Of a stretch of DNA of 45,924 bases, positions 33,128 to 45,924 are shown in pieces. Where the stretch lies: assembly GCA_021432655.1 (NCBI GenBank), contig MU271183.1:62001-107924 (forward strand), read 5' to 3'. The notes beneath the pieces were generated by a model. It was not told where the DNA came from, did not search any database, and worked only from the letters and a program-made list of their open reading frames with translations. Source of the stretch: Atractiella rhizophila (lineage: Eukaryota). Position 1 is the stretch's first letter. Every line of letters starts with the position of its first letter. The position numbers and the translations under genes are program-made.

Positions 33128-35292
33128 ATGGAGGTGGATAGCGTGCCAAAGAAGAAGGCTACGGTGAGAGAGCTGAAGCAGAAGGACTCGGAGAAGGAAA
33201 AGGCGAAGGAGCGGGAGAAGGAGAAGTTCATTTGGAGACAGGTCCTCGCGAACCCTTACAGTGTTAAAGGACAGCGCTGGTGAGTTTGTCGTCTTTCTTT
33301 TAGTATCAGGGAGGGGAGGGAGTGTTGTTTTTGCTGCTCAGAAGGAAGATTCTGTGTGCTTTATGAAGCGCTGGTACATCTGTTTCGACTGGGAAGACTT
33401 CGTTTTCTCCATATGCTATTGTTCAATCTTGCAAACACCAGAACAAACCTGGCGTACCACAATAGTAAGAATTAAAGAGTACTGTTGGGAAGCTTCACAC
33501 ACGATGCCAACTTTGGACATGTTAACTTACTAACCTCCACAGGCCACACCTCCCATCCACTCCCGAAGGCCTAAACCTCTGCAACGAGCTCATTTCCCTC
33601 TTGTCTCCGATAGGAGAACGACGCAGCGCCGAATCGGGGTTGTCGAAGTCGAAGAAGCGAAAGCGCAAGGAGACCGCCGCGTCCTCGTCAGTGAGCACGA
33701 AGAAACAGAAGGTAGCGACCGAACCAGGTAGTACAGGATCAGGAGGGGATGTTCCCATGGAGGTGGACGCGACTGGTGGATCTCAGGACGCAGTCGTTGT
33801 CAGGTCGTATACGTTGAGGTCGGATAAGGTGGTGGAATATCGACCTCGTCAGAACTTGTTCAATGCTTCTAAAACTGCCAGCGGTCAAGAGGACGCGAAT
33901 GGGAAGTTGGAGCAGGGGGTGGAGGAAGTGAGAGGGGACGCGGCCGTCAACGATGAATTGCTGCAATTCGTCACGATAGGGATCAACGATGTCACGAAAC
34001 AATTGGAGAGGATGATACATTCTCGAAGAGCTATTGAGGTCGGCGCTTCAGATGATGTCCCGGTTGCCCAAGTAAAGGAGACGGAGAAAACGAACCCATT
34101 GGAAGATGTGCTCGCTTCCGTCTTTCTATCAAACCTCCAACCAGCCATACCACCTCCGATTTCTTTGCAAGCAGCTCCTCCAGAACTAGTATCGAAGAGG
34201 ATCCAGCTGGCGCAACTCTCCAAGCCCATGGGATCAGAAATCAGGATCAAACGGGACACAATAGCCCTCGACCTCGACCTTCCTTCTTTCCGATACCTCG
34301 CCAAACCCAACTCAGAACAAGACGTGGGGAATCAACCATCGTCGTATGCCCTATTCCAGGATATGCCATCCCTCCCCCCGATTCCTTCCCTCCCTGATTT
34401 TCATACGCAACCTCACCCTCCGATACTCGATGGGAAACCTCATCCTTCGAAGAATTCGGCTCTCGTTACGGATTCGGTCTTGAAAGAGCTTTATAGACCG
34501 ATGGTCGAAAGCATTTACAGGGAGGAGAGGGAGAGAAAGATTAATTTGAAGAAGAGGGGGGCGAAGATGAGGAGGGTGAAGAGGGAGGTTGAGAGGATGG
34601 AAATGTTGGTTGCGGCAGGAAAGTTTGTGAGCTCGAAACAGAAGATGCAGAAAAAGGAGAGAGGGGTGGAAGGGAGTGGCAAGAAGAAAGAGAAGAAGGA
34701 GCAGGTGGATCGAGGCGATGCGAGAATCGTCCTGGTTTGTAGGGACGACCTGAACCCGCAGAGCTTGACGGATCATCTCTTGCAGATGGTAGGAAGTTGG
34801 AATGCGTTATGCGAAGAGGAGACAAAGGCAGATGAAGGAGATGAACAAGCGGAGAGGAAATCATCGGAATCCAAGCCTGATAAGAAGGAGGAGAAGGTGT
34901 TTCTAGTCGCTTTACCACAGGGCAGTGAAGTATCACTTGCGAAAGCTCTCGGTGTGAGACGTGCAGCTGCCATCTCCCTTTCTTCGACCTTCCCCTCCCT
35001 CCAACATATCGTCTCACTTCTATCCACCAATGGCATCTCGCCCATATCCCTTCCGAACCTCAATCGTCCCACGTCTTATGAACAGACTCACATCAAGCAT
35101 CTGAAGACGAGCGTGCCGACGGACTTGAAGGAGCGGAAAGAGGTGAAAGCGGAGAAGAAGAAGAAAAGGAAGGAGGAGATACGGGCAAAGGAGAGGAAAA
35201 GAAAGGATGCGCTGAAGTTTGAGAAGAAGTTAAAGCAGAAGGAGCAGAAGAAAAACAAGACACAGATGATGGACCGGGCACCGTCACAATGA
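33128..35292 (+). CDS. POP3: RNase P/MRP subunit Pop3/RPP38-like (L7Ae fold)
   Basis: RQVLANPY...W|P, VTIGINDVTKQLE, IVLVCRDDLNPQSLTDHL, LVALPQGSEVSLAKALGVRRAAAI and YEQTHIKHLKTSVPTDLK. One intron at 33280-33542. Confidence 0.82.
33371..33522 (+). ncRNA. Candidate intronic box H/ACA snoRNA
   Basis: Lies in a 263-nt intron. Hairpin, then AGAACA (ANANNA) at 33440-33445, then a second hairpin (TGGCGT/ATGCCA, CAATAGTA/TACTGTTG), then ACA at 33517-33519. Folded by eye only. Confidence 0.35.
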
Positions 35293-35521: not shown

Positions 35522-38500
35522 ATGGACCCCAACGATCTATCACAGGTTCTACCAAGTTCCCCATTGAAGAAAGCTCGGCTCGCCATTGATGGAACAGCGA
35601 CCTGCCAACAAACATTTGAGGAGCCGATAACCACAATCGAAGAGCAGAATGACGAGAGTACAGTGGAATTTGCAACAGATTTGACGGAGGAGGAAGCGAG
35701 AAAGTCAAGGAAGTATCAAGATGAGGCACTTGTTGCTGCAAAGGCTGGGAACGTTATTGTCAGGATGCCTACGGTGCGTGTCACGATCAGTTCGCAACTT
35801 GTGTCAAGAAGCCTTTTTCATTCTGCCATATAGGCATGAAAGCCTGCTCATTCAGCTTGTAGGAAGTCGTCTTCTTGAAGCCGTCACACTTTTAGCCTTT
35901 TGAAAGCCACAGTGCAGAATCAGCTCACAGATTCATTTAGGGATCTGGAAAGACAATGATGGCAACTATGCTGATAAAAGACATGTTGTCCTCACCGCTG
36001 AGCCAAGGTGAAACCACACCCAAGGTCCGCCTCTTCACTTCCACTTAAATTGTGTTTCCAAATCCTGCTTGACAGAAAATCATCTTCCTTGTTCATACAA
36101 CGCTCCTTGTGCACCAGCACCACGCCACACTGTCCGCCTCACTCCCATCTCTCCAGTCCTCCTCATCTCTCAAATCCTACTACGGCATGGGATACGACGA
36201 CTGGTCATCTTCAAAATGGGAGGCCGAGTTCGAAGAGCTCACTGTGGCGATCATGACTGCCCAAATCTTCCTAAACCAGCTCCGAGCTGGGACATGGAAG
36301 ATGAACCGGTGTCAGCTCATTGTCTTTGACGAGTGCCACAATGCCACGAGAAATCATCCCTACGTTGCCATCATGAAGGAAGTTTATCATCAGATGCCTG
36401 CAGAGGAGAGACCAAAGATTTTAGGCCTCACTGCAAGCCCGATTCAGGATCCACAGGCTGATAAGGCGAAGAAAGATCTGAGGTGTCTGTTCTTCCTTGT
36501 CAATGTCATGATGCTGAAAATAGTACAGGGCTTTAATGAGCGTGCTAAATTGCGAAGTTCACGAGACAAAATTTAACGTCGACGAGCTGAAGATATTTTC
36601 TCCTACACCAATAGAAGAGATATACGAGTATTCTGCATCAACTTGGGATTCTGCGTCACTGCCAGCGATTTCACTGATTGAGGAAACCTTCAAGTCCTGT
36701 CAGTGGATTTGGGAAGCGTTTGCCGCGCCAGATAATGGAAAACCTAAAACTGAAGGGAAGGTGTTCAAGGGCTACAAACAGATAATAGAGGTTTGCACAT
36801 GCTGGTCATTAGGCTTTGGTTAATTATTTCGCAGCAACTCGGAACGATTGGAGGTGATGCCTACCTCTACCTTTGGCTGCTCGAATTCAAAGGCCACGTC
36901 GAGTCCCATCCGAGAGCCGATTATGGCGACATCAGAAAAAATTCTGTCAAAGTGCAAGAGCTTCAAAACTTCTACCAGCTGGTGAAAAAGCGGTACGAGC
37001 AACTTCCCGACTTCATCCTGCCTCCCGCTAGCCTAGCTAGGAAAAGGTTGCGTGATAACACGCTGAAGTCGATCGACGCTCCTTCTCTCTCCGACGTAGA
37101 GTTACTCAATCCGTCCTTCTCGCCCAAGCTTTGTCTACTCCTCCATCTCCTCCCCCGATACCCAGCTGAACACTTCCGCTGTCTCGTCTTGTGCAAAACA
37201 CGAGTGTCATGTGACGTTCTCTCCGAGATCATCCAGAAATTCTCTGGATACGACTGGATAAGACCAGGTTGGTTGGTCGGTCACGGAGATTCGAGAGACG
37301 GTGTAAAGAGGGAGCACCAAACGGAAGTGGAGGCTCAGATGAAGGTCGAAGAACAAATTAAAATGATGCAAGGCTTTAAGAAAGGAGAAATTAATTTGTT
37401 GGTTGCAACTAGCATTGCAGAAGAGGGTATTGCGCGTCGTTCTTCATCTTTCAATTGCCACGCTAATAGGTACCGTCGATAACAGGATGTTCCAGCTTGT
37501 AACCTTGTCATACGCTTTGATCCACCAACCAGAAAACTCATCGGCTATGTTCAGTCCCGCGGTCGGGCTCGACAACATAATTCGCATTATATCCTTTTCG
37601 CCGCTCTCTCCTCCGACGAACGAGTTGTCTACGAGGCGTGGCAGACAGAGGAGCAAGTCCTCCTTGAAAAATATAGGGAAAGGGAACGGCTTGAACAGTT
37701 AGTCGAGGAGGAATCGAGTGGATACGAAGGAGTGCTAACAATACCAGAAACTGGAGCATACCTCACTGGCGCGAGTGCTATTCCACTTCTTGCCTCCGTC
37801 TGCGCTTTATATCGCGTAAGACTTCTTTTGTTATCCCATGCCTAAGTACTGATGATTTCATGCGGAAGGATTCATACACACCGGATACAAAACCGATTTA
37901 CGAAGAAATAGTTTCCGGCACAGATCCCGACTCGAAAGACACGTTTCCCCACCCATATCGCTATCGTCTTCAATTGCCCTTTATCTCCACCTTGACCGCA
38001 AGCGACAGGGTCTTTTTGTCCGATCCTTTTCCGACGAAGAAGAAGGCAAAACAACACGCTGCATTCCGTGCTTGCCAGTTATTGCTAGAGAAGCAGAAGA
38101 TCGATCTCAATCTGCGGCCGGTGAGGAAACCCAAGCCCCACGGCAAGCAGACGGACTTTTGGTACGACGGGAACGGGGAGAAAGTCGTTGTGTATAAGCT
38201 TCCAGAGAAGGTAGAAGGTCGAATTCCAAATGTTTGGAAAGATATTTGGCAACCTGATGCAGAGTGTTGGTGCCATTGTTTGGAGGTGAAAGCGGGCAAG
38301 GCGGTGACAAAGATCGGCTTCATCTGTGGAAGGAAGGTGGAGGTCGCCGAATTTGGATGGGAGGATGTCGACTATGGGAACGAGAAAATCACGTTCAAGG
38401 TTAGCGATGAGAAGCTTCTGGAATGGGCAGATGACGGGATAAAGAAGAGCCATCTTCTTCGACTGGACGAATGGAATCGAAAGTGCTACATGGTGTCCCT

Positions 38501-40955
38501 TAATCGTCGCTTTGCGAGGGAAGATTTGGCGTATGAAAGAGAGTCGAATAGTCGAGTGGAACCCCAAAAGTCGCAACATCGACTGTTATGGCTTCTCGCA
38601 CCACTTTCTAGTGATGGTCACATCGACTGGTCATTGGTGGATGAGCCCTGGTCTCCACTTCCCAGATTTATTGAACACCTGAACCTACATGAGCTGCATA
38701 GCTCAGTGATACTTGTTCCTCATCGACCTCTCACCACCCGACTCTTCAACTTTGTTTCCCCTCGTCACGACGTCTCCACTTCCTCATCGGTCCATTTACC
38801 TCTTGCAAAACGCATCGAATGGATAGATTATGAACATTGGTTCACCAAGATGAGGAGACACCATGCATCGGTCCGAGCTCTCCCAGAAGTTACCTACTTC
38901 TTAGAACTTCAAAGTCATCCGAAGCCCAGGAACTTCCTTGCTCCATCGACCAAGGATTCTTACGAAGATCGTCGTACCTTTCTCGTTCCCAACAATCTTT
39001 GTGCAATCGATCTTTTAGGGGTTGGTGTATGGAAGACTTTTCGACATGTCCCTAGCTTTACCAGGAGGATTCACGACATGCTACTCGCTGACATGGTTGC
39101 GAAGGAATTGACGTTGGATTTCATTCCGTCTGAGTTGATGTGCCATGCCATAACTTTGCCAGTTTGCGGAGTCGGATATGACTATGAGTGGGTGCTTCGC
39201 ACATAACCTCCCAATTCCTCATTGATACGACATAGGCGGCTTGAATACTTGGGCGATTCTTTCGCAAAGTTGGTATGTTGCCCACCAGGCATAACAGATC
39301 GTTGAATGGGTTTGAAGGCATCGAGTATCCACTTGTATTTGCTCAAGGACAAAAACCAAGACCTACTGGACGAAGGACTTCTCAGCGCTCGAAGGCAGGC
39401 TTGTATCAGTAATTTCACCTTCCGGAAACGAGCGATCGAATCTGGGCTGCATAACTGCTTCTCTACTTTCATTTGTCGCATCAATGCCTGGCGGCCTCCA
39501 ACTTTCGAGGTTGACAACGACCTTTCTGCTGATGGATTGACAGTTGGACGCACAGTGGCGCGCCGTACACTCTCTGATGTGACTGAAGCGGTCATGGGTG
39601 CTGCCTACTTGTCTGGAGGGATACCAGGAGCTTTACATGCATCACAACAACTTGGCCTCTCGTTCGGGAAGGCTAAGGATGGTGATTGGGAGAGACGCTG
39701 GAATGAATTAGGGAATGAAGGCGATATCTATCCCGCTGGGCCCATTTTGCGAGAGTTAGAAGAAACAATTGGATGGATTTTTCGCGATTCGAGATTCCTA
39801 ATCAGTTCTCTGACACACAATTCATATACCGCCGCCGACGCATGTTATGAACGTGAAGAGGTCTGTCCTTTGTTCTTCTACTTATATTGTTGATTGACAT
39901 CTGTCCAGTTTTTGGGTGATGGTAAACTGTCCATTCATCCGCAGATCAGGAACTAATTGATGGCATCAGCCGTGATTGATTTCTTTGTCGCCTCTAAACT
40001 CTTTTCCCTATTTCCTCTTGCTCCACCTTCCCGCCTTTCAGTTCTCCGCTCTATGTTAGTTTGCAATTCGACCTTGTCATACCTCTCCCTCTCGTTATCC
40101 CTCGACAGTCACATCCGGCTCTCCGCAGCATCCTCCGCCATCGACGCCATCGCTGCTGCCCGCAAGGAATATTCTACCTTTGGACCTCTGGATAAGGATT
40201 GGCTCTCCAGGAAGCCTTGGACTTGGGATCCTCCCAAAGTTCTGAGTGATGTCTTTGAAGCTGTGATCGGCGCAGTGTTTTGGGACTCCAAATTTAACGT
40301 CCAGAAAGTCTGGGCGATCCTAGAGAGATTTTTTGCTGATCTCTTGAGGGTTATTCAGGACTGTGGAGATGTGGTAGCAGATCCGTGGTCAGTTATGGAA
40401 AAGAGGATCAGGCAAGAGGCTCGTTGTCATAAATGGAGGGTCGAGCATAGGTCCGTGCTTATTCTGAATTCCGAAATTTGAAAACTGAGGTTCGCCTTTA
40501 GTCAACTAGAACCAGGCGTTCGACTCGCACAGGTCATATTCCATGATGTCGAGATAGGATCCGGGACGGGCAAGACGCGAGCATTGGCAAAGATGGCAGC
40601 AGCGGATGCAGCCAATGCATGGTGGCTGCTCCATCGACAAGACGTGCGAAAGGAGAGCGCAGAGGATGATCAAGAAAAAATCTGCGATTGTCATTTCTTG
40701 AGGGAGCAGAAGAAAAAGGAGAAAAAGGAGGCGAAACTTAGGGAGAAGCTAGCTGCTAGAGATGTGACAAACAAGGCAGGGAAAACTACTGGAGAGGTCG
40801 ATGTGGAGCTCTTTAGAGAAAAGGAGGTCCCAAACTCTATAATCGAAGTTGAGAAGGAAACTGGACAGCGAATTGAACCTGGACAGCTTGACGAACTGGT
40901 CGAAGAAGTCGATGTGGATGATGTTGATTCTGAAGGCACAGACGAGGAGATGTGA
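35522..40955 (+). CDS. Dicer-like protein A: DExH helicase, HelC, DUF283, RNase IIIa, RNase IIIb, C-terminal dsRBD with CHCC-type residues
   Basis: Helicase motifs: RKYQ, MPT|GSGKT, VFDECH, ILGLTASP, LLVATSIAEEGIDV, YVQSRGRAR. DUF283: TGAYLTGASAIPLLASVC..DSYT...SDPFPTKKKAKQHAAFRAC. RNase IIIa: YERLEYLGDS...SDVTEA. RNase IIIb: YEREEFLGDA...SDVFEAVIGA. C-terminus: RCHKW..H..CDC. Confidence 0.93.
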
Positions 40956-41311: not shown

Positions 41312-43888
41312 ATGCAGGAATCATCCAGCGAGCGAGCAATGATGGGGATTGAGATGTTAACGTCCAGAAAGTATCAGGAGGAGGCGCTGATCGCTGCAAA
41401 GAGGGAGAATGTGATTATTAGAATGCCAACGTGGGTCTCCTCTTTACCAAATATTTAATTTCAGCTCCGCGGTGAGGCTCCTCGCTCCTGTGGTTGTGAC
41501 TGCAATAAAAGATGTGGAATTTCTAAAGCTCTGAAGCATGAAAGCTTCCACGGTCACTTCACTTGATCTCTTCATCTGTGCTGGTAGACTAGACAGGGAC
41601 ATCGTAGACATTTCTCACCTCGCGAGGGTACAGTACTCCCACTCCCTGTATCCTAGTAAATATCCAGATACAATATTTTACATTTTTCTCCCGGAAAAGA
41701 TATCTGTTTGAGTTGTGAGATTACGGGTGGATATTCCAAGGAGATTTGTGAGCGAGTCGGGGTGATATCGACATCCAACAAAAGGAGAATGAAGTTGTCT
41801 AGAATTGCTCAAAATCCCAACATGGCACAGTATCTGGGGATGTTTGATTTATTCAAAGCAAATTTGAGATTCTCACGCCTTTTTGATGTATTTTTCTTTT
41901 CAGTTCTTTGATGACAGTATGTTAGCCTGACTGACTTAAAATCACGCTGTTGTATAGAGGCTCTGGAAAGACTCACGTGGCCGCTCTTCTGATCAAAGAG
42001 ATGTTGTCCATGCCTCTGGAACCAGGTCAAACAGAGGCTAAGGTATGTATGCCTTGACTTCATCGCACTGGGCTGATGGAAAGAATAGAAAATCATCTTC
42101 CTCGTGGACAAAACGCTGCTAGTGCATCAACACATTGGTACACTGACGCGGTACATGCCTTCACTAGCGTCCCGCCTCAAACATTATTTTGGAATGAGCT
42201 GCGATAGCTGGCCAGTGTCTCAATGGCTCGAAGAATTTGCTTCTCTCGATGTTGCCGTCATGACAGCACAAATCTTCTTGAACCAATTACGTGCCGGGAC
42301 TTGGCTGTTAGACAAATGCCAGCTGGTCGTCTTCGATGAGTGCCACCATGCAACCAAGAGCCACCCATATGTTACGATCCAAGAGGAAGTGTACATGAAG
42401 ATGGAGGGTGAGAGACCGAAGATTCTGGGCCTCACTGCGAGTCCGATATACAATAGTGAGTCGGAGAAGGCGAAGAGAGACTTAGCGTATGTCTTACTAC
42501 TTGACTTCAAGCAAATGAGTCGTCGAGTAGTGACATTTGGTCTGGTGTAGCAAACTCGAACGTATCCTCGATTGTCGCATTCACGAAACTAAGCTTCACG
42601 TTGAGGAGTTGAAGCTGTTCTCACCCACTCCCGTTGAATCGATATATGGCTATCCAAGATCTGAATTAGGAGAACCTCGCCCCGTTTCTCCCATCGAAAA
42701 CTTATTCAAATCTTGTATCTGGATCTGGAAGAAGTTTACAGAAGGGCCGGGGAAGATGTACAAGGCATTTTTGGATGCAAACCAAGTTAAACGTTCCCAG
42801 TACCTTGATAACGTTGAGGCTGATTATGTTTTACAGCACCTTGGAACTGTAGGAGGAGACATATATCTGTACCTTTGGCTGGGCGAATTCAAGAACCATG
42901 TCGATAACCACCCCGCATTCCACTCGATGAAGCAGGACACACGTCGTTATTCGCAGCTTCAGCGGTTATATTCTCTAATGAAGACAGCTGTTGAAGCTCT
43001 TCCAACTTTTGTTCCATACAGTTCCTTCACCAGCGAACAGTTTCGGCACGACGACCTCGACCGGATGCAATACGATCCCTTCCCTTCTGAACTCCTAGTC
43101 AGCAATGACGGCTTCTCGCACAGACTTCGGCTGTTCCTATCCCTCCTTCCCATCTACCGAGACGTTGCATCTGATAAATTTCAATGTCTCGTCCTCTGCC
43201 AGACTAGGTTGCAATGCGAGGTATTGTGCGAAATTGTGAATCGCTTTTCCGGCTACCAGTGGATCAAGGCGGGCTGGCTGGTTGGTCATGGGGATAGCAA
43301 GGACGGAGTGAAAAGGGATATGCAAACAGAAGTCGAGGCCAACATGAAAGTGGAGGAACAACTCAACATGATGAATGGTTTCAAAAGAGGAGATATTAAT
43401 CTGCTCGTCGCCACCAACATTGCGGAAGAGGGGATTGTATGTTTGACACTGCTCCCTTCTTCCACATCAAATTGAGATTGCCATGCAACAGGATGTCCCT
43501 GCTTGTAATCTGGTTGTGCGCTTCGATCCACCGCAGACCTTGGTAGTTGTTTTCTCTTTTTGTGTGTGGTCAGTGATGACATATCATGGCACTGTGGCAG
43601 GTCTCCTACGTGCAATCTCGCGGACGTGCCAGGCGTCACAATTCATATTACGTCCTGCTGGCTTCCAACGAGGACGAACGGCAGAAGTATGTGAAATGGA
43701 AGGAACAAGAGCTGACTCTCCTGGCGCAATATCGAAATAGGGAGGACATGGAGAACCTGCAAGCACAATCGGAACCGGACCACTTTTTCTTCCAGGGAAG
43801 CGCATCAGCTTCGAAACGTTTGGCTGGAACGATGTCGATTTTTCCAATGAAGCTGTTTCTTTCTCCCTTGTCGGCACTCAGCTTATGA
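41312..43888 (+). CDS. Dicer-like B, 5' part: helicase-only ORF ending shortly after HelC
   Basis: RKYQEEALIAAKRENVIIRMPT|GSGKT, VFDECHHA, ILGLTASP, LLVATNIAEEGIDV, VSYVQSRGRAR. The frame then reads non-homologous sequence to TGA at 43886-43888. Confidence 0.75.
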
Positions 43889-45924
43889 CGTGGCAAGATC
43901 AAGAAGCAAAACGAAATGAGTTGCTACGACTGGACAAATGGAATCGCAAGTGCTTTATGGTCTCATTGAACCGACGGTTTGTGAGGGAAGACATTTCTCA
44001 TCATCAGGAATCCCTCAATGGAACTGCACCGGAGAAGTCGCATTTTCGATTACTCTGGCTTCTCGCCCCCCTTGACTCTGAAAATGCCGTCAATTGGACG
44101 CTAGTCGACGAACCTTGGATCCCCATTCGCAATCAGTGTGACTTGCAGGATCTGGAACAGTCGATTATTGTTTCGCCATATCGGCCACTCACCTGCCGGC
44201 TCTTCAAATTCATCACTCACCGTCCAGACATATCGCCTTCGTCTGAAATTCAACTCCCACTTCTAGGCAGAATTAAATGGGCGAATTATAGCGAATGGTT
44301 CTCATACTCGAGAAAGTATTATCCTTGTGTTCGGGCAACACCAGAGACTAACTTCTTCCTGGAACTCGAGAGCCGTCCCAAATCTCGAAATTTTCTTGAT
44401 GGGACGTCTCAATCGAAGCAGCTCAACCAGGGACCGCACCAATTGATCCTGCCCGACAACTTGTGCGCGATTGACCGCCTGGGAGAAGGCATGTGGAAGG
44501 CATTCAGGCATGCTCCCAGCTTCAGCCGGAAAATTCACGATGGGTTGCTGGTTCGGCTGGCAGCTCAGAAATGGAAGATGCAATCTGTACCCAGCTCCCT
44601 CCTTACTGAGGCCCTTACTTTGCCTGTTTGCGGTGTTGGGTTCGACTACGAGTGAGTTCCCCCATACCATGCTGCAAAATACTAACAAGTTCGCAGACGC
44701 CTCGAATATCTAGGAGACTCGTTCGCAAAATTGGTTTGTTGTTTAATACTTTTTCAGCAAGTTGTTTACGAGAATACAGGCTTCTAGCGTGCACCTTTTC
44801 TTGCTCGAGGATTCCACAGGAAGATTGCTAGATGAGGGTAGCCTGAGCTGTCGCCGTCAAGCCTCAATTAGCAACTTCACCTTCAGAAAGCGAGCATTGG
44901 AAACTGGAATACATAGCTATTTCTCCACGCTTCCTATACGACCCTATGCCTGGAAACCCCCTTCCACCGATTTGCACAAGCTGTCACTGGACGGCCAACA
45001 CCTGGTTCGGAATGTTACACGTCGTAGTCTGTCAGACGTCACCGAGGCGTTGATGGCGGCGGCGTACCTCACTGGAGGGATTGAAGGAGCCTTGGATACC
45101 TCTAGGGAGCTCCAGTTGTCGTTCGGAAAGCGTGAGGATGGAAGTTGGCAGGAACGATGGGAAGCTAAAATGCGAAATGAACAAGAGTATCCGGCTGGAC
45201 CTGTATTACGAGACCTAGAAACGACTCTCAATTATCGCTTTCGAGATTCCCGCTCCCTGTTGCGCGCATGTTGCCATAGGAGCTTCTTGGCCGCAGATGC
45301 CTGTTACGAAAGGGAGGAATTCTTAGGGGATGCTGTTATCGATTTTTTCGTTGCGAACAAGCTCTACCATCTATTCCCCAATGCGCCCCCCTCCCGATTA
45401 ACAGTCCTTCGCTCCATGCTCGTCTGCAATCCTACTTTGTCTTACTTAAGCTTCAAGCTCCGCCTTCACAACTATATTCGAATGTCTCCAGCGTCATCCG
45501 CCCACGCAGCCATCCACGCAGCACATGAGGAATTCAAAGAATTTTCTCCACCCGACTCTACCTGGCTTTCAAGTATCCCTTGGACCTGGGACCCGCCTAA
45601 AATCCTAAGCGATGTTTTCGAGTCGGTTATTGGTGCCATTTTCTGTGACTCAAAATTTGATCTCGATTTGACGTGGAGGATTTTGGACGATATTTTCGGA
45701 GAGTTGCTTCTCGTCATCCAAAAATGTGGTGATTTTGTGAGAGATCCATGGTCTTTGATGGAATTGCGAATGGTCAAGGACACTCGCTGTCGCAAATGGA
45801 AAGTGGTTCACAGGTACGTTAACGAATGACTATGAAGATAGATTTGTTCATGCCCTGGTAGTCAAGGGGAACCTGGCCTGAGGCTCGCCCAGATTATGTG
45901 TCATGACAAGGAGATTGGTTCAGG
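43885..45924 (+). CDS. Dicer-like B, 3' part: linker, RNase IIIa, RNase IIIb and start of the dsRBD; runs off the window end
   Basis: Collinear with Dicer A from GKRISFETFGWNDVD onward. Has YERLEYLGDSFAKL...SDVTEA and YEREEFLGDAVID...SDVFESVIGA, with no internal stops after splicing. It is in a different frame from the helicase part. Confidence 0.8.

Follow-up and report, generated by a model that had tools for sequence, protein, structure and literature searches.

Dicer B, the downstream member of a tandem pair of Dicer genes in Atractiella rhizophila, is divided in the genome assembly into a helicase reading frame and an RNase III reading frame that meet at an ATGA stop/start overlap, and the question raised by this locus is whether such an arrangement represents a Dicer made in two parts or a damaged record of an ordinary one. 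The locus was analysed within a stretch of 45,924 nucleotides (GenBank assembly GCA_021432655.1, contig MU271183.1, positions 62,001 to 107,924), hereafter called the window, in whose coordinates all positions are given; all features lie on the forward strand. Dicer B was found to be, very probably, an ordinary fungal Dicer, the copy in the window reflecting either an allele with a deletion or a fault of the assembly rather than a new kind of enzyme.

Gene Layout and Domains

The Dicer B gene occupies positions 41312 to 45924 and runs past the 3' end of the window. Exon 1 (41312–41430) and the start codon were taken from the mapping of a public protein model, P0001, while the remaining exons (41958–42040, 42087–42486, 42551–42785, 42837–43436, 43492–43541, 43600–43794, 43795–44651, 44697–44732, 44779–45811 and 45860 onwards, the last open at the window end) were drawn from joints in the transcript contigs of X3, a public run whose kind is unrecorded. 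Built in this way, Dicer B consists of 560 codons plus two bases upstream of the break and 663 codons within the window downstream of it, both stop-free. The C-terminal part, where a dsRNA-binding region is expected of a Dicer, is cut off at 45924 by the end of the window; the first residues beyond the final splice (SQGEPGLRLAQIMCHDKEIGS) correspond to those of Dicer A.

The ResIII/DEAD and Helicase_C domains were matched in Pfam, as was Ribonuclease_3 in two stretches (E = 1.3e-28), and the translation contains the motifs GSGKT, DECH, QSRGRARR, ERLEYLGD and EREEFLGD, with PTGSGKT formed across a splice supported by X3. Helicase motifs I, II and VI together with Helicase_C, which define the helicase of the Dicer class, are thus all present, as are the two RNase III signatures (E..LE.LGD), for which solved Dicers were the top matches. 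No PAZ match was obtained in Pfam for either Dicer A or Dicer B at E values up to 0.01, and neither of the two open reading frames of Dicer B beside the break matched Dicer_dimer (PF03368), the DUF283 domain expected of a Dicer. The first-pass annotation had seen no disabling lesion in Dicer B apart from the split, and this holds, both parts being stop-free and their motifs intact.

The tandem paralogue, Dicer A (35522–40955), was modelled from reading frame and homology only as a stop-free gene of 12 exons and 1592 aa, including one GC..AG intron (37432–37485) and a 13-base micro-exon (39909–39921). Against this model, the upstream part of Dicer B aligned to residues 58–606 with 55% identity and the downstream part to residues 798–1462 with 57% identity. 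The intervening residues 607–797 of Dicer A (37702–38327, including a 53-base intron at 37816–37868), in which Dicer_dimer was matched in Pfam with an E value of 5.1e-11, have no counterpart in Dicer B of the window. A tblastn comparison of the Dicer A segment with the window in forward, reversed and complemented form revealed no copy of the missing part elsewhere or in mirror image. Intron positions are common to the two genes at several places, but Dicer A has no intron where Dicer B has the one at 43542–43599.

The Break and the ATGA Overlap

The helicase frame, whose codons start at positions equal to 2 mod 3, extends without interruption from 43580 to the TGA at 43886–43888, and the nuclease frame, with codon starts equal to 1 mod 3, is free of stops between 43741 and 44655. 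The ATG at 43885–43887 overlaps this TGA, giving the ATGA at 43885–43888 that an AUGA-type bicistron would present. The split, the overlap and the loss of DUF283 had all been noticed earlier, and a frame change near 43790, with about 180 residues of Dicer A lacking a counterpart, was indeed observed. The exact place assigned to the junction did not stand: Dicer B was said to leave the Dicer A-like frame after ...MENLQ, whereas it stays in frame for 11 residues further (AQSEPDHFFF plus two bases), and the X3 contig described below sets the break between the adjoining bases 43794 and 43795. From there an out-of-frame tail of 31 codons (43795–43888), peculiar to the window form, leads to the TGA, so that the predicted product of this form has 591 aa. 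The window contains no N, and the flanks of the break are unique within it.

The ATGA overlap is a weak, incidental coincidence, since its Met corresponds to a Leu in Dicer A, as had been stated before and was seen again in the alignment of the two genes, and since one of the 19 stops in the shifted frame of the nuclease half is an ATGA; in the matching exon of Dicer A the share is one in 17. In the full-length transcript, the site is internal coding sequence (..GTQLMTWQDQ..).

A Transcript Contig Spanning the Break

The contigs of X3 skip eight GT..AG introns along Dicer B (41430/41958, 42040/42087, 42486/42551, 43436/43492, 43541/43600, 44651/44697, 44732/44779 and 45811/45860) and therefore derive from spliced RNA; the contigs of X1 and X2, two other runs with small shares, do not cover the break. 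X3 record 8, with a length of 2637 letters, spans 42834–45102 of the window in the segments 42834–43436, 43600–43794, 43795–44651 and 44779–45102, and carries 514 extra letters (record positions 907–1420) exactly between 43794 and 43795, with no window base skipped. These letters match nothing in the window. The two left-over bases of the helicase frame and the 514 letters add up to 516, or 172 codons, which restores the nuclease frame exactly, 43795 then being the first base of a codon of that frame, an outcome expected by chance in one case out of three. The size also agrees with the paralogue, as about 180 residues were expected (191 residues of Dicer A minus the 11 of Dicer B that stay unaligned) and 172 were found. 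With the insert, Dicer B already amounts to 1395 codons within the window, and by the frame arithmetic, record 8 would encode the single polypeptide that the window sequence itself does not.

The first-pass annotation had stated that an additional 600 bp or so at the junction would tell against its two-part reading. The 514 letters lie at just this place in a spliced contig and restore one frame, so that the routes it had proposed to a two-part Dicer, namely reinitiation, frameshifting and an internal promoter, are not supported. Its further opinion, that a very recent pseudogenisation or a misjoin was at least as likely, is supported for the two as a pair, the choice between them remaining evenly poised.

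Record 8 and the window disagree at 21 of the 1979 aligned letters, and record 8 therefore represents another allele or strain. Among the 40 listed of the 65 differences between the X3 contigs and the window, 25 were synonymous and 15 non-synonymous (7:3 in the part before the break and 18:12 in the part after it), so that neither half of Dicer B resembles a decaying gene. None of the X3 contigs listed has the junction of the window, and record 8 is the only one in the bin 43665–43815; since contigs show presence and not absence, the deleted form may nevertheless be transcribed. The idea that record 8 is a chimera of Dicers A and B made by a word-graph assembler was rejected, as the two genes share no word of at least 17 bases.

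The Public Protein Model

P0001 (NCBI hypothetical protein BT69DRAFT_1291807 of Atractiella rhizophila, 1222 aa) maps letter for letter on Dicer B of the window. It crosses the break by continuing into the intron over 43542–43572 and then reading 43605–43685, which encodes motif VI (QSRGRARR), in the wrong frame, and only because of this wrong frame does its 109-base "intron" at 43687–43795 (GTATGT..TTCCAG) fit; record 8 is continuous over 43600–43794. The model is otherwise a patchwork, with two spurious mini-exons placed in the first intron of 527 bases, a 51-base intron kept as coding and a 3' end that runs into the intron at 45812–45859. Lacking DUF283, with motif VI scrambled and a false C-terminus, P0001 is unfit to be cited for a loss of domains when fungal RNAi proteins are surveyed.

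Relatives and Searches

When the exon of Dicer A was compared with its best 25 representatives (E values up to 4.5e-13), the match began at query residue 35 or earlier in 24 of them. The single exception was P0001, whose match began at query residue 156. As the part missing from the window is present in 24 of the 25 best relatives, and as the exception is this locus's own model, that part is a regular component of this family. No relative with a split two-ORF arrangement was found among 55 representatives or in word-index searches. The exon of Dicer B returned only P0001 among the longer proteins of the protein collection and nothing among those of nearly its length, and the exon of Dicer A likewise returned only P0001. 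Metagenome contigs gave no relatives by protein and no matches to a 24-base pattern taken from the left side of the break. In the accessible parts of the literature on the Atractiella rhizophila or Atractiellomycetes genome, Dicer and RNAi, no paper on the Dicer B locus was found.

Explanation of the Split

The explanation preferred here is that Dicer B is a conventional Dicer whose order would be helicase, DUF283 and platform region, a pair of RNase III domains and a tail at the C-terminus, encoded in one open reading frame of a spliced mRNA. To judge from arithmetic and size alone, the 514 letters would encode the stop-free DUF283/platform part, and the occurrence of this insert in a spliced contig, together with the frame arithmetic, suggests that Dicer B is expressed as a single-ORF enzyme. 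The window copy would thus be short of a stretch worth 514 mRNA bases (172 codons) at 43794|43795, and the gap in the DNA would probably measure about 0.56 kb if Dicer B shares the intron that Dicer A has there. Since 514 bases do not make a whole number of codons, their loss puts what follows out of frame, and the helicase frame would then run for 31 codons to a chance TGA overlapping an ATG. The two-ORF appearance can therefore be regarded as a by-product of a frameshift by deletion and not as a device for making two proteins.

Within this explanation, a real deletion, private or specific to one haplotype, and an assembly error were given about equal chances. A joint with no letters common to both sides in record 8, together with a window free of N, favours a real deletion over a collapse of the assembly caused by repeats. 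If the loss is real in the DNA, the result would be a null or truncated allele encoding a 591-aa helicase stub, whose mRNA would be a likely target of nonsense-mediated decay, with the intact X3 allele doing the work. The strain from which the window derives may have the deleted form alone. The main value of these results is one of housekeeping, as the record contains a break and yet a two-part gene is not how Dicer B is expressed, and a real deletion on one haplotype would simply be a null allele of a gene that exists in duplicate.

A functional two-part Dicer was considered very improbable. It would combine a real deletion with a free helicase (591 aa) and a nuclease devoid of helicase and DUF283, the latter made by reinitiation at the ATGA (43885–88), by -1 slippage around C TTT TTC (43783–89) or from an internal promoter. 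The overlap and the required direction of shift (-1) are present in the sequence, neither half bears another lesion, and in each of them most of the listed differences from the X3 allele are synonymous. Nevertheless, a full-length, in-frame transcript form exists, so that no rescue mechanism is called for, and the restart Met is not conserved in Dicer A, the ATGA frequency is within chance, and no relative is so arranged. Moreover, a canonical slippery heptamer reads X XXY YYZ, and C TTT TTC departs from it because its first base is C.

A hidden splice in the deleted form was judged highly unlikely. In this case, the GTATGT donor at 43687, the strongest in the region, would be joined to the AG at 43763 (77 bases) or 43808 (122 bases), yielding one open reading frame and a single-chain Dicer without DUF283. 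Both joints are stop-free, frame-restoring GT..AG pairs that use AGs other than TTCCAG, the acceptor considered in the first-pass annotation and found there to differ in phase from GTATGT. Against this, record 8 is continuous through 43600–43794, showing the donor to be unused in that transcript, the splice would excise residues conserved with Dicer A (KYVKWKEQELTLLAQYRNRE), and about 90 formal frame-restoring GT/GC..AG combinations exist, so that some were to be expected anyway; none of these was seen in the X3 contigs. A branch-like CTGAC lies at 43712–16, inside the candidate 77-base intron.

The chance that the allele of the deleted haplotype is alive beside an intact one, providing a free RIG-I-like helicase and a minimal nuclease reinitiated at the ATGA, seems extremely slight; if true, such an allele would show a Dicer naturally "unzipped" at the very start of its existence. 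That the short window form is the original and the 514 letters an insertion in the X3 allele (a retained intron or a mobile element) is scarcely credible, for although the nature of these letters is read from arithmetic and size, the part is present in Dicer A and 24 of the 25 best relatives, and the window form is out of frame without the insert and exactly in frame with it.

Comparison with Known Systems

Victoriviruses use AUGA termination-reinitiation, and the same four letters, ATGA, end the upstream frame of Dicer B. The overlap of Dicer B, in contrast, is not conserved, as the restart codon is a Leu in Dicer A and the X3 form has one frame, and a frameshift by deletion is the simpler cause. 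Among solved proteins, the best relatives are canonical Dicers, Arabidopsis DCL1 (7eld) and DCL3 (7vg2), Drosophila Dcr-1 (8dfv) and human Dicer (5zak), which were matched by the RNase III exon of Dicer B with E values of 1.4e-29 to 1.5e-20. Dicer B shares with them the order of DExD/H helicase motifs, Helicase_C and two RNase III domains, whereas its copy in the window is devoid of the DUF283/platform part and has a broken frame. Helicase-less Dicers include the budding-yeast Dcr1 and Cryptococcus cases and the Giardia Dicer (2ffl), the last weakly matched by the RNase III exon of Dicer B (E = 2.6e-06). A product of the reading frame from M43885 alone would likewise be without a helicase. Nevertheless, the helicase-less Dicers are whole genes fixed in their lineages, whereas Dicer B has a full-length transcribed form.

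Dicer Pair and the Break in Dicer B

Two tandem Dicer genes, Dicer A (35522–40955) and Dicer B (41312–45924, running off the 3' end), occupy the + strand in the 3' third of the window from Atractiella rhizophila, a member of the Pucciniomycotina. In both genes, as stop-to-stop ORFs and Pfam show, ResIII/DEAD and Helicase_C pieces come first, and after them come a long middle exon and two RNase III domains. Dicer A was modelled, from frames and homology only, as a protein of 1592 aa with 11 introns. A 588-codon stop-free frame (33526–35292, + strand) with a lysine/glutamate-rich tail lies immediately upstream of it. The frame change and stop/start overlap reported for Dicer B in the first-pass annotation were confirmed, the helicase frame being open up to TGA 43886–43888, the nuclease frame opening at 43741 and ATG 43885–43887 overlapping the stop; comparison with Dicer A bore out that this Met aligns with a Leu, and every catalytic and helicase motif described as intact was present. 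With exons taken from the joints of X3, a public sequence run, Dicer B comprises 560 stop-free codons upstream of the break (43794|43795), aligning to A 58–606, and 663 downstream, also stop-free, aligning to A 798–1462. Residues 607–797 of Dicer A, which contain its Dicer_dimer/DUF283 match (Pfam), had no partner in the window's Dicer B, in agreement with the claim that about 180 aa including DUF283 were missing. In the window's record, Dicer B is an ordinary Dicer paralogue with a frame-breaking loss of the DUF283/platform part.

Transcript Evidence Across the Break

X3 was found by a search of public runs and contained 0.61 of the sampled words (its kind is unrecorded), with two further runs containing a small share; its contigs were compared with window 41400–45924. 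The contigs are spliced RNA, since they skip eight GT..AG stretches of 45–64 bases each and one of 527. The contig crossing the break (record 8, 2637 letters) matches 42834–43436, 43600–43794, 43795–44651 and 44779–45102, and the gaps in its numbering are explained by two short exons (43492–43541 and 44697–44732). Between 43794 and 43795 it carries 514 letters matching nothing in the window. The coding sequence upstream of the break leaves two bases over (1682 = 560 × 3 + 2), and these together with the 514 letters make 516, or 172 codons, so that the nuclease frame is restored exactly, 43795 starting one of its codons. Comparison with Dicer A led to an expectation of about 180 residues, against the 172 found, and the 514 letters are presumably free of stops and DUF283-like. 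Of 1979 aligned letters in record 8, 21 are not those of the window, two 188-letter contigs at 45073–45260 show 0 and 15 differences, respectively, and both variants occur at 42650/42666 and 45295–45352. Because the window's letters and alternative letters co-occur, X3 includes two or more alleles or strains, of which one is window-like in places; a heterozygous source or a mixture of strains is indicated. Two forms, one window-like and one different, were also seen at 45678–45764. Whether the loss is real or an assembly error, the Dicer B transcript in X3 appears to be that of a conventional Dicer.

Family Comparison and Selection

The 445-residue exon of Dicer A was scored against 1.84 billion representatives, giving 55 matches at E up to 0.001. 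The top match was P0001, the public NCBI protein model of the Dicer B locus, aligned only from query residue 156. The part missing from the window's Dicer B is standard in these proteins, since the remaining 24 of the best 25 matches aligned from query residue 35 or earlier; P0001, built from this record, was the only protein among those 25 without it. When searched against a word-index of longer proteins and the representative library, the exon returned P0001 (49–50% identity) and the Dicer A protein itself was not found; Dicer A may be unannotated or concealed behind the cluster of P0001. Among 40 listed differences of the 65 between X3 contigs and window, 25 were synonymous and 15 nonsynonymous (7:3 upstream of the break and 18:12 downstream). 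Judged from these substitutions, both halves of Dicer B have been under purifying selection; the gene shows no sign of decay, and the loss, if real, would be very recent.

Origin of the Loss and the Two-Part Reading

A real deletion has about an even chance of being the source of the loss, in keeping with a joint without letters common to both sides, the absence of N in the window, unique flanks and the presence of more than one allele in X3; an assembly error is given much the same weight. The window was also searched for the missing part in a displaced or mirrored position, and no such copy was found. Far less probable is the two-part Dicer proposed in the first-pass annotation, with separate helicase and nuclease made by ATGA reinitiation, frameshifting or an internal promoter. 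About 600 bp of extra sequence at the junction had been named as evidence against it; record 8 carries 514 extra letters there, by which the frame is restored, and the proposal is rejected with high confidence. TGA 43886–43888 is the first stop in the shifted frame, where an early stop is expected; this frame holds 19 stops over the nuclease half of Dicer B (10 TGA, one ATGA) and 17 in the exon of Dicer A (nine TGA, one ATGA). The slip site put forward, C TTT TTC (43783–43789), is no canonical heptamer, and nothing was seen that requires reinitiation or frameshifting at Dicer B. A word-graph chimera with Dicer A as the source of record 8 was excluded, as the two genes share no word of at least 17 bases.

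Corrected Gene Structure and Comparison of the Paralogues

The best database match of the middle exon of Dicer B was P0001 (NCBI 'hypothetical protein BT69DRAFT_1291807 [Atractiella rhizophila]', 1222 aa). Every segment of it maps letter for letter on the window; the public annotation was therefore derived from this very sequence and includes its break. X3 joints corrected P0001 at five places, all on the + strand. Removal of the first intron (41431–41957) results in a canonical PTGSGKT, where P0001 invents two mini-exons; a 51-base intron at 42786–42836, retained in P0001, is given by the contig joint 42782/42834 and one synonymous A>G as GT..AG; the intron at 43542–43599 is spliced in X3, P0001 reading through into 43542–43572; the coding stretch 43605–43685 takes the QSRGRARR frame; and with the intron at 45812–45859 removed the ORF goes on as in Dicer A, whereas P0001 reads into it and acquires a false C-terminus. 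The first intron of Dicer B has 527 bases, its others 45–64, and the first of Dicer A 167. In Dicer A, FLGD(A) of the second RNase III signature seems to lie on a 13-base micro-exon (39909–39921) flanked by two 48-base introns, whereas Dicer B has no intron there. The only in-frame intron predicted in Dicer A between motif V (..SIAEEGI) and DVPACN (37432–37485) begins GCGCGT and is thus GC..AG; if unspliced, TAA at 37480 would end the protein. Dicer B has GTATGT at that same place, and its intron at 42786–42836 has a counterpart at the same place in Dicer A.
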